Positions 480-23,247 of a stretch of DNA of 64,000 nt are shown here, one piece after another. Location of the stretch: assembly GCA_951406725.2 (NCBI GenBank), contig OX597831.1, positions 7,440,001 to 7,504,000 of the forward strand, given 5' to 3'. Numbering within the stretch: position 1 is the stretch's first letter; each line of letters opens with the position of its first letter. The DNA comes from Octopus vulgaris (Eukaryota). The notes below the pieces were generated by a model, which made no database searches, was not told where the DNA came from, and saw nothing but the letters and a program-made list of their open reading frames with translations. The position numbers were made by a program, and so were the translations under genes.

Positions 480-584
480 ATGGCACCCGGGTCGCGAGCT
501 GTTTGCCTGCTCGGTGTTTGTTACATTATTTTCATGTCCATGATAAGCCTCATAGCCAGTCAACCACAGTACGACCTAGACAAG
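480..584 (+). CDS. CCAP: CCAP precursor, first coding exon (signal peptide)
   Basis: aacaATGG start context; MAPGSRAVCLLGVCYIIFMSMISLIAS-QPQYDLDK has a hydrophobic signal-peptide core; strong phase-0 donor AAG|GTAGGT at 584/585. The link to the CCAP exon is inferred from strand and phase. Confidence 0.7.
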
Positions 585-16101: not shown

Positions 16102-16166
<65 letters not shown>

Positions 16167-16207
16167 TAAATGAAAGAATGGAGTCGAACGAAGATGTTAA
16201 CAAAATT

Positions 16208-16300
16208 CCTTTACTTTCGACATATGTTTCGAAGACCACATGGTTTCATTCCAAAGGAATAAAGGGTGTATGATGCAATCTTCTCATCAGGAAAGAAAGG
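16208..16300 (-). ncRNA. Complete type-I hammerhead ribozyme motif (Penelope/retrozyme-type)
   Basis: Minus strand CCTTTCTTTC-CTGATGA-GAAGATTGCAT..loop..ATGTGGTCTTC-GAAA-CATATG-TC^GAAAG(T)AAAGG: perfect core, 10-bp stem I with one bulge, 11-bp stem II, palindromic stem III, GUC cleavage triplet. Confidence 0.85.
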
Positions 16301-17058
16301 GAGCCTCTCTCATTCACCTATTGATATAAATAAATATATATATATATATATATATACTCACCCAATTATATACATATACGTTTATATACATAGATATACT
16401 TATACTTACAGGTTAGCACATACTAAAGATTTCCACTCAGTACTTTTATGCACTCATAGGCATATACAAACACGTCCACCCGGCAATATGTATGCACACA
16501 CAGATTGTATACACGTATGGCATTATTCGCACGCATATGTAGGCACAGAACAATAAATGGTACATGGGTAAAGCCTCATACATTTGTCCATGGGTATATA
16601 GACGTGTATAGCAATTTATGAAAGCCATTTAAATATTGAAAAACAGTTAGCTCTATCATGATGATTCGCACGGGGACGAAACTGCTGCTCATTGATCTGT
16701 GAAGACAGTAACGGAGACAGCGACGCCGTGACAAGCAGGAAGGGACACGGCAGGCGTTCTAACTGCGTCCACATGTCGGAATTCATCCAAAAACCAGAAG
16801 ACACAACAGGCTTAATTCAGATGGCCATGTGAAGTTTCTGGAAACTGATCAAATCCTCGTTGGAAGGCCATATATGTAGCTGCAAGATTCAGCTCTTTGC
16901 TACACCTCCACCATCAACGCACTATGCTAAACAAGTAAACCATTTCGAGCAAAATGTATCGGAAATGGAAATGGTTAACAAGGGAGGTAACTGAGTAAAA
17001 CACAAACAATTGAAAGAAAAGTAGACTTGATAAAAAGATACAACATTATGCACTCTAA

Positions 17059-17427
17059 GTGGCACTCCGTCGCTTACGACGACGAGGGTTCCAGTTGATC
17101 CGATCAACGGAACAGTCCTGCTCGTGAAATTAACGTGCAAGTGGCTGAGCACTTTAGAGACACGTGTACCCTTAACGTAGTTCTCGGGGGAGATTCAGTG
17201 TGGCACAGAGTGTGACAAGGCTGGCCCCTTTGAAATTACAGGTACAACAGAAACAGGAAGAAAGGATGAGAGAACGTTGTGGTGGGTTCGCCACCACCCA
17301 CTGTTGGAGCCTCGTGGAGCTTTAGGCGCTTTCGCTCAATAAATACAATCCTCGGTCTGGGAATCGAAACCGCGATCCTATGACCGCGAGTTCGCTGCCC
17401 TAACCACTGGGCCATTGTGCCACCACT
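17059..17427 (-). mobile_element. SINE family B, body type 1
   Basis: Full copy; TSD ATTATGCACTCTAA/ATTATGCGCTCTAA. Confidence 0.9.
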
Positions 17428-20424: not shown

Positions 20425-20619
20425 CCTCAGGATTCCGAGTACTTGAGTATGAAATTGCAAAATCTACTACGCAGATCAGAGTTATCGGACTCAGCTGTTA
20501 AAGGCTTGCTTGATCACAGGACAAAAAGAGTTTTCTGCAATACTTTTGGAGGTTGTACAAGTCTCTTGCGCTCCGTCGCTTTGAAAAACAGAAGAGCTTC
20601 CGTGCTTTCGTCTCACTGA
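20425..20619 (+). CDS. CCAP: CCAP precursor, peptide-bearing last coding exon
   Basis: Strong acceptor ctctttcctactttacag|; phase 0 gives PQDSEYLSMKLQNLLRRSELSDSAVKGLLDHRT-KR-VFCNTFGGCTSLLRSVALKNRRASVLSSH*. VFCNTFGGC (20530-20556) matches the CCAP motif xFCNxFxGC after a dibasic site. Confidence 0.9.
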   Translation, partial: PQDSEYLSMKLQNLLRRSELSDSAVKGLLDHRTKRVFCNTFGGCTSLLRSVALKNRRASVLSSH

Positions 20620-21736: not shown

Positions 21737-22018
21737 TACATGGAAACATTATATAAATTTGGAACGCAATACAGTAAACATTTTCAAAGATATGAACGAA
21801 ATATTAATTTTCAAACGAGACAAAAACATGTCCACTTTAAAGGATTACTTGCTACATTCAATATTTTATCCGCTTTTTTTTTACTAACTTCAGATATTGC
21901 TGATAATTTCAATTCTAATAAATTATTTCTCTTGGCATTTTTCACCTGTCATCGTTATTGCATCTGCAGGAATTCTGATTTGTGTTCCGCGGAGAAAATC
22001 TTCTTCATCCTGATTAAA

Positions 22019-23247
22019 GTGGCACGAAAAGGAAAAGAATTCTCTGAAGATTTGAAGAACATTATCTTTAATTTGCACAAGAATGGTTTAGGATCCAAGT
22101 TAATTAGCAAACGAATACATATTAGCGAAAACGAAGTTGCCAAACTAATTCAGTAGCACAAAGCTACTGTGGACGGCTAAGCAATAGACATCGCCCAGGT
22201 CGTCTTTCTATTTTAACTGTGCGTGATATTTGCCACATCCAACGTTGCATGATGGACGACAGGCGTCGTGCCGCTTCATCTTTGGCTCAAGAAGTGTCGT
22301 CTGTTAGTGGAAAGAGTGTATCCGCCCAAACGGTTCGCCGAAGTTTGAAGCAGTGTGGTCTTCACGGACGCATTCCTCGTAGGAAGCTTCTCCTCAGGCA
22401 TAAATCAAGTCGTCTTTCTTTTGCCGAAACCTATGTCAGTAAGGGGAAGGTTTTTTTCAATAAAATTTTTTTCATCTGACGAGACTAAAATCGACTTGTT
22501 TGGGTCAGGTGATATTAAACGAGTATGGGGACGACCAGGTGAAGATAATAGCGACAAATGCACCGTACCCAGTGTAAAATACGGCGGCAGAAGTGTTATA
22601 CTTTGGGGATGCTTGAGTGCGGCTGGTGTGGGAGGACTCACCTTTATTGAGATAACAACGTTACGTTCTGAGTTCAAATTACGCCAAGGTCGACTTTGCC
22701 TTTCATCCTTTCAGGGTCGATTAAATAAGTACCAGTTACGCACTGGAGTCGATGTAATCGACTTAATCCGTTTGTCTGTCCTTGTTTGTCCTATCTGTGT
22801 TTAGCCTCTTGTGGGTAGTAAAGAAATAGGTATTTCTTCTGTCGTTACGTTCTGAGTTCAAATTACGCCGAGGTCGACTTTGCCTTTCATCCTTTCGGGG
22901 TCGATTAAATAAGTACCAGTTACGCACTGGGGTCGATGTAATCGACTTAATCCGTTTGTCTGTCGTCCTTGTTTGTCCCCTCTATGTTTAGCCCCTTGTG
23001 GGTAATAAAGAAACAGATATTGCCATGGCCTACCATGTCACCTGATTTAAGCCCAATAAAACATCTGTTGGGTGTTTTGAAAAGGAAGGTTGAGGAGAAA
23101 AAACCCTGCAATCTAACACAGTTGAAAGACATCATTCATGATAAATGGAGGTTGATTTAATCGGTTGTATGCGGAACTTTAGTCAATTCTATGCCCAGAA
23201 GACTTTATGTAGTCATTAAAAGCAAGGATGGTTACAACAAATATTGA
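22019..23247 (+). pseudogene. Tc1 transposase pseudogene
   Basis: ARKGKEFSEDLK, RPGR, VSAQTVRR, FSDETKIDLFG, VKYGGRSVILWGC, WPTMSPDLSPIK, LVNSMPRR; stops, frameshifts, and the second-D region replaced by a SINE dimer. Confidence 0.92.
22659..23016 (+). mobile_element. SINE family A tandem dimer (both units 5' truncated)
   Basis: Two units joined at AAAGAAATAG|GTATTTC (about 22829). Confidence 0.9.

Follow-up and report, generated by a model that had tools for sequence, protein, structure and literature searches.

Hammerhead ribozymes in the pseudo-LTRs (pLTRs) of Penelope-like elements (PLEs), the palindromic form of their stems III and the occurrence of Hydra elements in octopus have already been published. 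The metazoan PLE hammerheads (Cervera and De la Pena, 2014, PMC4209133) are of type I, lie in the pLTRs, carry a palindromic helix III and occur mostly as single dispersed copies or as opposite-strand pairs; they are thought to cut as dimers and are weak in vitro even in that form, and the RNA thought to be set free by this cutting may become circular (PMC4209133; PMC6765202). [quoted passage not shown] The same features were found in the family to which the hammerhead in the window (the whole 64-kb stretch of Octopus vulgaris DNA analyzed here) belongs, along with the G10.1-C11.1 pair and the predicted dimer of the metazoan PLE hammerheads.

With a probability of about 0.88, this motif is a real hammerhead in the 3' pLTR of a high-copy Hydra-type PLE, of which the window carries a truncated, inverted end-piece that is likely inert. 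The departures from the Hydra elements described so far are the two-helix domain II of 51–61 nt and the loss of the CxCX5C linker in a family that still ends in (TA)n. Domain II measures 53 nt in the window copy, whereas none of the 26 Hydra rows in supplement S2 of PMC8557442 exceeds 24 nt; the unit of about 3.2 kb and the tail of about 135 nt exceed the sizes given in that paper (generally below 3 kb and 30–40 bp, respectively). In the metazoan hammerheads of PMC4209133, helix II has 6–8 bp and helix I 2–5 bp, whereas the window copy has a two-helix domain II and a 10-bp stem I with a bulge, and is without the additional base that they have between positions 9 and 10.1. A long domain II is also found in the PLE hammerheads of the spike-moss elements PLE-X1_sMoe and PLE-X1_sTam (9+35+9 nt in PLE-X1_sMoe), which are marked in supplement S2 of PMC8557442 as departing from the canonical structure. 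Since these elements belong to another PLE clade (endonuclease-less, rDNA-targeting and from plants) and bear no visible sequence likeness to ours, the long arm appears to have been gained independently. No description of the long-armed form was found in the literature searched, and a term search of the main text of the 2026 O. vulgaris repeat annotation gave no mention of a hammerhead, a ribozyme or Hydra (PMC13282606).

Structure and Detection of the Hammerhead Motif

The motif and its parts are located as follows:

16208..16300, minus strand: complete type-I hammerhead ribozyme motif (sequence, fold and descriptor scan)
16291..16300, minus strand: 5' strand of stem I, the partner of which is 16218-16208 (pair probabilities 0.93-1.0)
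16284..16290, minus strand: core CUGAUGA, C3-A9 (sequence)
16231..16283, minus strand: domain II of 53 nt, comprising helix IIa (11 bp), a 9x3 internal loop, helix IIb (8 bp, 16263-16245) and a 3-nt loop
16219..16230, minus strand: GAA, palindromic stem III (16227-16220) and C17, with the predicted cut at 16219/16218

The CUGANGA, GAAA and NUH cores typical of hammerheads are all present, and the three-way junction is open at stem I, as in type I. The complete type-I hammerhead that the initial annotation had placed on the minus strand (16300-16208) was thus recovered with its core, stems I and II and palindromic stem III. The anatomy is as it had been described, with a once-bulged stem I of 10 bp (5+5 bp, the bulged U being at 16213) and a stem II of 11 bp (16283-16273 with 16241-16231) including three G-U pairs; these are followed by GAA at 16230-16228 and the palindrome ACAUAUGU at 16227-16220. 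C17 lies at 16219, and the cut predicted between 16219 and 16218 agrees with the position given previously. The hairpin noted inside loop II is also present, but with 8 bp instead of 5, which makes "loop II" a second helix, and with its 53 nt and two helices domain II is, as had been stated, longer than the minimal Penelope form. An 11-bp stem II without interruption characterizes the subfamily of the window copy; the seventh pair is non-standard in 14 of the 20 aligned relatives.

The presence of this hammerhead is far beyond chance. The descriptor scan, one of the checks suggested along with the annotation, gave one match, on the minus strand, and no other anywhere in the 64-kb window. Among 200 windows of 64 kb obtained by resampling, there were no matches when stem I was required to have at least 5 and stem II at least 8 bp, and 8 matches when at least 4 bp were required in each. 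RNAfold yielded stems I and II and the inner hairpin of 8 bp; z was -2.4, with 7 of the 200 shuffles equally stable. The pair probabilities were 0.72-0.82 for stem IIa and 0.84-1.0 for stem IIb. The Rfam models, suggested as another check, detected no hammerhead at either of two thresholds: there were no matches in the window at the gathering threshold, and the 32 matches obtained between 15200 and 17400 at E<=10 were all microsatellite-driven miRNA-family ones. This is probably due to the 53-nt domain II. The result shows that Rfam overlooks this entire class of hammerhead.

Copy Number and Parent Element

The hammerhead belongs to an inserted end-piece of about 165 bp, which is truncated, inverted and flanked by (TA)n tracts:

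16164..16311, minus strand: 5'-truncated arm of the 3' pLTR of the element, terminating at the "short" 3' end of the family (identity and end typing)
16310..16324, plus strand: inverted 15-bp arm corresponding to the "long" (tail) 3' end of the element, with a 2-nt overlap at the inversion junction
16106..16163, no strand: (TA)n tract at the short end (sequence)
16325..16356, no strand: TA-rich tract at the long end (sequence)

The stretch common to the copies (16157-16311) precedes the 15-bp inverted piece and is 99.4% identical to the nearest ones, from which it differs only by a stem I U-G pair converted into U-A; 29 other loci are 97–99% identical to the window arm over 155 bp. The high identity to dispersed copies indicates that the window copy is young. 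It has no promoter, ORF or partner hammerhead. The window also contains at least six copies of a different, SINE-like repeat of about 360 bp (17060-17400, 10356, 28503, 37442, 54684, and 61110), with 83–85% identity.

A first-look search of the genome gave 1,822 candidates, 40 of which were scored, yielding 46 matches at 95–100%. The genome-wide copy count that had been proposed came to at least 660 close copies with a tight exact-anchor pattern (no matches in the controls) and to 7,829 with a looser pattern consisting of the core, 15–80 nt and the ACAUAUGU stem III, which excludes domain II arms below 15 nt (24 matches in the controls). Among the matches listed to the looser pattern, 95 of 100 had a domain II of 51–61 nt and the other five had one of 15 nt.

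The copies form a nested series of 5'-truncated versions of a single element, the unit of which is about 3.2 kb long and contains one ORF. In the longer copies, the ORF terminates about 250–300 nt before the hammerhead. RT motifs, DKT, a GIY-YIG-like core and the pattern CxxC-E-N-CxH were recognized in this ORF, and the single RT plus C-terminal GIY-YIG reading frame was read from separate natural copies, each of which is broken somewhere. A tandem of the pLTR-ORF-pLTR type was observed once, at locus L059, where two same-strand hammerheads are 3,205 bp apart and the upstream pLTR has been copied through an intact cut site; inverted pairs are common. The initial annotation had left the choice between a Penelope-like element and a retrozyme. 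Palindromic-stem-III type-I hammerheads are held to define non-LTR retrozymes (bioRxiv 10.64898/2026.07.22.740005), and many of the copies are short, as would be those of a non-autonomous unit made of tandem hammerhead repeats without any ORF. The continuity of the nested copies with the RT-endonuclease ORF largely refutes this origin, and no short head-to-tail array was present among the 49 loci typed; a retrozyme is thus extremely improbable, while the Penelope-like part of the proposal stands.

Two fixed 3' ends occur in the family, separated by about 135 nt. Twenty of the 49 typed loci were two-armed: 17 of these carried one long and one short end, in the other three one arm could not be classed, and the long/long and short/short combinations did not occur in any of the 20. 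The window copy fits this one-long, one-short pattern, which resembles the one-end tail of PLEs described in PMC8557442. TA repeats, as read by eye, adjoin 65 of the 71 ends scored, and these tracts may have grown at the time of insertion or later. In L063 (6470-6632) and other copies of the same lineage (lineage A), the short and the long 3' ends each come after a similar 13-nt pyrimidine-rich motif lying immediately in front of TA. A second lineage (lineage B, see below) is also two-ended, and no likeness to this motif was seen there.

Three relatives were found in the databases, namely a mislabelled octopus protein and two unnamed proteins of 714–729 amino acids with the same layout. The former, P0001, is named "myb-like protein I" and comes from Octopus sinensis; it corresponds to a fragment of the lineage A ORF (53% identity).

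Probable Affiliation to the Hydra Clade

The amino acid motifs of the family were analyzed in the light of those reported for the Hydra clade. The single ORF comprises an RT and then, at the C-terminus, a GIY-YIG endonuclease, DKG is replaced by DKT in L046, L054, L055 and L059, the endonuclease pattern CxxC-E-N-CxH was found in the translations of lineage A copies, and the (TA)n insertion typical of the clade was observed at the 65 of 71 ends mentioned above. The Naiad and Chlamys clades were ruled out since the endonuclease is C-terminal. The N-terminal RWK position reads RWL in L059, RWA in lineage B and RWK in a third lineage (lineage C); the RWL reading is a difference from the clade as described in PMC8557442, as is the missing CxCX5C linker before the endonuclease. 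In lineage A, 21 of the 22 distinct linker stretches contain fewer than two Cys residues and the 22nd is a stop-filled junction, the linker being replaced by an Asn-rich tract, whereas the CxC..C linker is kept in lineages B and C and in the proteins P0002 and P0003. The family was consequently filed as Hydra-type with a lost linker and not as a textbook member. Since no RT or GIY-YIG domain was recognized by Pfam in the 12 protein queries, the assignment to Hydra is based on motifs and similarity. By eye, the protein resembles that of Hydra-1_Obim of Octopus bimaculoides, described in the same paper; the latter is however a different family, with a short hammerhead that has no stems in common with ours.

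In PMC8557442, the CxCX5C linker is linked to (TA)n targeting, and a linker-less family ending in TA would be a possible counter-example. The zinc finger of the linker has been proposed to direct this targeting, an idea that becomes testable in a single genome containing sister families with and without the linker.

Conservation of the Structure and Sister Lineages

Twenty of the 82 distinct motifs extracted were aligned, near-duplicates and non-aligning lineages being left out; they represent about six related subfamilies. Pairing was observed in 85.8% of the cells across these 20 relatives, as compared with 39–53% for slid partners. Double changes occurred in 19 cells, versus 11.3 in the shuffles (5 of 500 shuffles were as high), and affected stems I, IIa and IIb. 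Counted by pair, double changes were present in 5 of 31, a figure not above that of the shuffles (299 of 500). Covariation among the genomic copies, which had been put forward as a test of the hammerhead, is therefore moderately in its favor, given this pair count and the relatedness of the rows. A separate comparative run agrees on stems I and IIa, and the proximal pairs of stem I are retained across subfamilies. Stem III is invariant in the alignment, partly because of how the sequences were chosen.

Searching with the protein led to the identification of two other Hydra-like lineages, B and C, accounting for 26 and 4 of 30 loci, respectively. Lineage B, which was thus found independently of the RNA pattern, has unrelated stems apart from an identical stem III, and its domain II, of 51 nt, is situated about 1.6–2 kb after the ORF; lineage C has a minimal hammerhead. 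The 51–61-nt two-helix domain II is common to the two related lineages A and B, which are grouped together in an RT tree of eight sequences (99/98) carrying a long-branch warning and built without named references. The loci of lineages B and C (L101, L102, L104, and L105) contain uninterrupted ORFs of 842 and 727 amino acids in near-identical copies, and appear to have been active recently.

A palindromic stem III, together with a domain II of 31–66 nt, was also seen in three further motifs encountered incidentally. Hammerheads with longer palindromic stems III, of 10–12 nt, are present at L104 (9795 and 9321), L102 (9365) and L105 (6102), all on the minus strand; in L104 and L102, domain II measures 65–66 nt and contains a long AU-rich hairpin. 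The L104 hammerheads form a same-strand pair 474 bp apart. Further families with the same 8-nt stem III occur at L109, L129, L130 and L131, with a domain II of either 58–59 nt or 15 nt. Since several families have this palindrome in common, cross-family dimers would be possible.

Predicted Dimer Formation and Possible Roles

The folding models favor the dimer-dependent cutting that had been proposed. The active dimer is the cofold minimum, at -51.4 kcal/mol versus -44.0 for two monomers: stem III comprises 2 bp in the monomer, with a probability of 0.01, and 8 bp once swapped in the dimer. Between 6 and 8 intermolecular stem III pairs were predicted in the cofold minimum of 9 of the 14 motifs tested, while the inverted pair at L003 folds into a long hairpin burying the core. 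According to these models, cutting probably depends on two copies.

Contacts between stems II and I are reported to raise hammerhead activity by orders of magnitude (PMC3088659), and the long domain II might likewise reach stem I and make the monomer active at physiological magnesium, so that no dimer would be needed. The domain II arm and the interrupted stem I are retained across subfamilies and same-strand tandems are apparently rare, as might be expected on these lines. A monomer is, however, left with the 2-bp stem III, and the palindrome is identical in lineages with entirely different other stems, which a dimer explains; nor was any conserved loop-loop complementarity noticed by eye. 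An active monomer seems quite unlikely. The thousands of copies, diverged subfamilies, single palindrome and long arm constitute a natural set of variants for comparing monomers and dimers.

The dimer reading would imply the following steps. A transcript of a partial pLTR-ORF-pLTR tandem of the parent element would carry two hammerheads, the palindromic stems III of which would pair as an 8-bp helix, so that each core might cut the GUC site of the other and release a unit-length RNA. Because the cut site is intact in the genomic copies, re-ligation of this RNA, or else the copying of RNA that was never cut, would have to follow. The RT and endonuclease of the element would then insert it at TA repeats, a step often accompanied by 5' truncation and inversion. 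As for the long domain II, it is a two-helix arm conserved in this lineage, most likely compatible with catalysis and retained for a further, non-catalytic function, for instance the binding of a protein.

The main rival to dimer cleavage is that the hammerhead-shaped RNA has been kept for a non-catalytic job in transposition, as promoter DNA, as an RT-binding signal or as a template-jumping signal, and rarely cuts in vivo. No excess of breakpoints was detected at the cut site in a test restricted to exact positions and to one subfamily allele (3 junctions, as compared with 4 and 9, the latter in 7 separate places, at two control positions), and copying of the upstream pLTR in L059 ran through a site that was intact; the role of the hammerhead in PLEs, including the endonuclease-bearing (EN+) ones, is moreover still called unclear in PMC8557442. 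Re-ligated circles would nevertheless leave intact sites too, and the core bases and the U-H cleavage triplet are kept in lineages B and C and in the three incidental motifs, all of them identified without recourse to the RNA pattern. We therefore regard a purely non-catalytic role as unlikely, and dimer cleavage remains the preferred reading. It is possible, though doubtful, that this octopus Hydra-type lineage has made domain II a conserved functional module of 51–61 nt, serving in protein binding or docking and present in thousands of copies, with one branch that is linker-less yet (TA)n-targeting. If so, (TA)n targeting by the linker-less branch would overturn the idea of linker-driven microsatellite targeting.

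The CCAP-Like Host Gene

The end-piece is located in an intron of 19.8 kb between two coding exons:

480..584, plus strand: coding exon 1, which encodes the N-terminus (signal-peptide-like) of a CCAP-like precursor (mapping of P0004; covered in three of three RNA-like runs)
20425..20619, plus strand: coding exon 2, dibasic-flanked CCAP-like peptide, C-x5-C (mapping of P0004; the X11 contig joins 584 to 20425)

The protein P0004, the source label of which is Octopus vulgaris, maps to 480-584 and 20425-20550, and a contig of run X11 passes from 584 directly into 20425; this run, along with X2 and X7, is RNA-like, its RNA nature being presumed. A search for an exon between 584 and 20425 gave none, so that the insertion lies in the first coding intron and not, as had been stated, in CCAP intron 2. 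No reads covered positions 1-272 of the window in the three RNA-like runs, which leaves room for an upstream non-coding exon. The peptide in exon 2 is a KR-flanked C-x5-C resembling the CCAP sequence quoted in PMC6523705, and it is on this likeness that the gene is putatively labelled CCAP; a search with the arthropod CCAP motif gave nothing relevant, and the exon was found with a relaxed motif.

The hammerhead is indeed antisense to the CCAP-like gene, as annotated, the motif being on the minus strand and the exons on the plus strand. Beyond its position, a tie to this gene is not supported, since hundreds of such truncated copies are dispersed in the genome. Co-option of the window copy for regulating the gene, either by cutting an antisense intron transcript or by pairing with element RNA, might be read from its location within the large intron, its intact core bases and the one substitution that turns the stem I U-G into U-A. 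The copy is nonetheless young, given its 99.4% identity to dispersed copies, and is one of at least 660; it has no dimer partner, the host pre-mRNA carries the reverse complement only, so that the sense strand is devoid of a hammerhead, and the RNA-like contigs give no strand. Co-option is accordingly very improbable, and the element likely landed in this neuropeptide-gene intron by chance: as regards CCAP, the finding is the ordinary one of a transposon fragment in an intron.

The P0004 model leaves the CCAP-like exon in mid-peptide for the remnant of a Tc1/Sleeping Beauty-type transposase (21890-22153 and 22126-22801, plus strand), while the genomic frame of the exon continues to a stop at 20617-20619, giving a precursor of 99 amino acids; the gene model thus looks mis-spliced. 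Upstream of the gene, positions 1-110 of the window (plus strand) contain the palindrome TGACGTCA, which we take to be CRE-like, and a TATA-like stretch.
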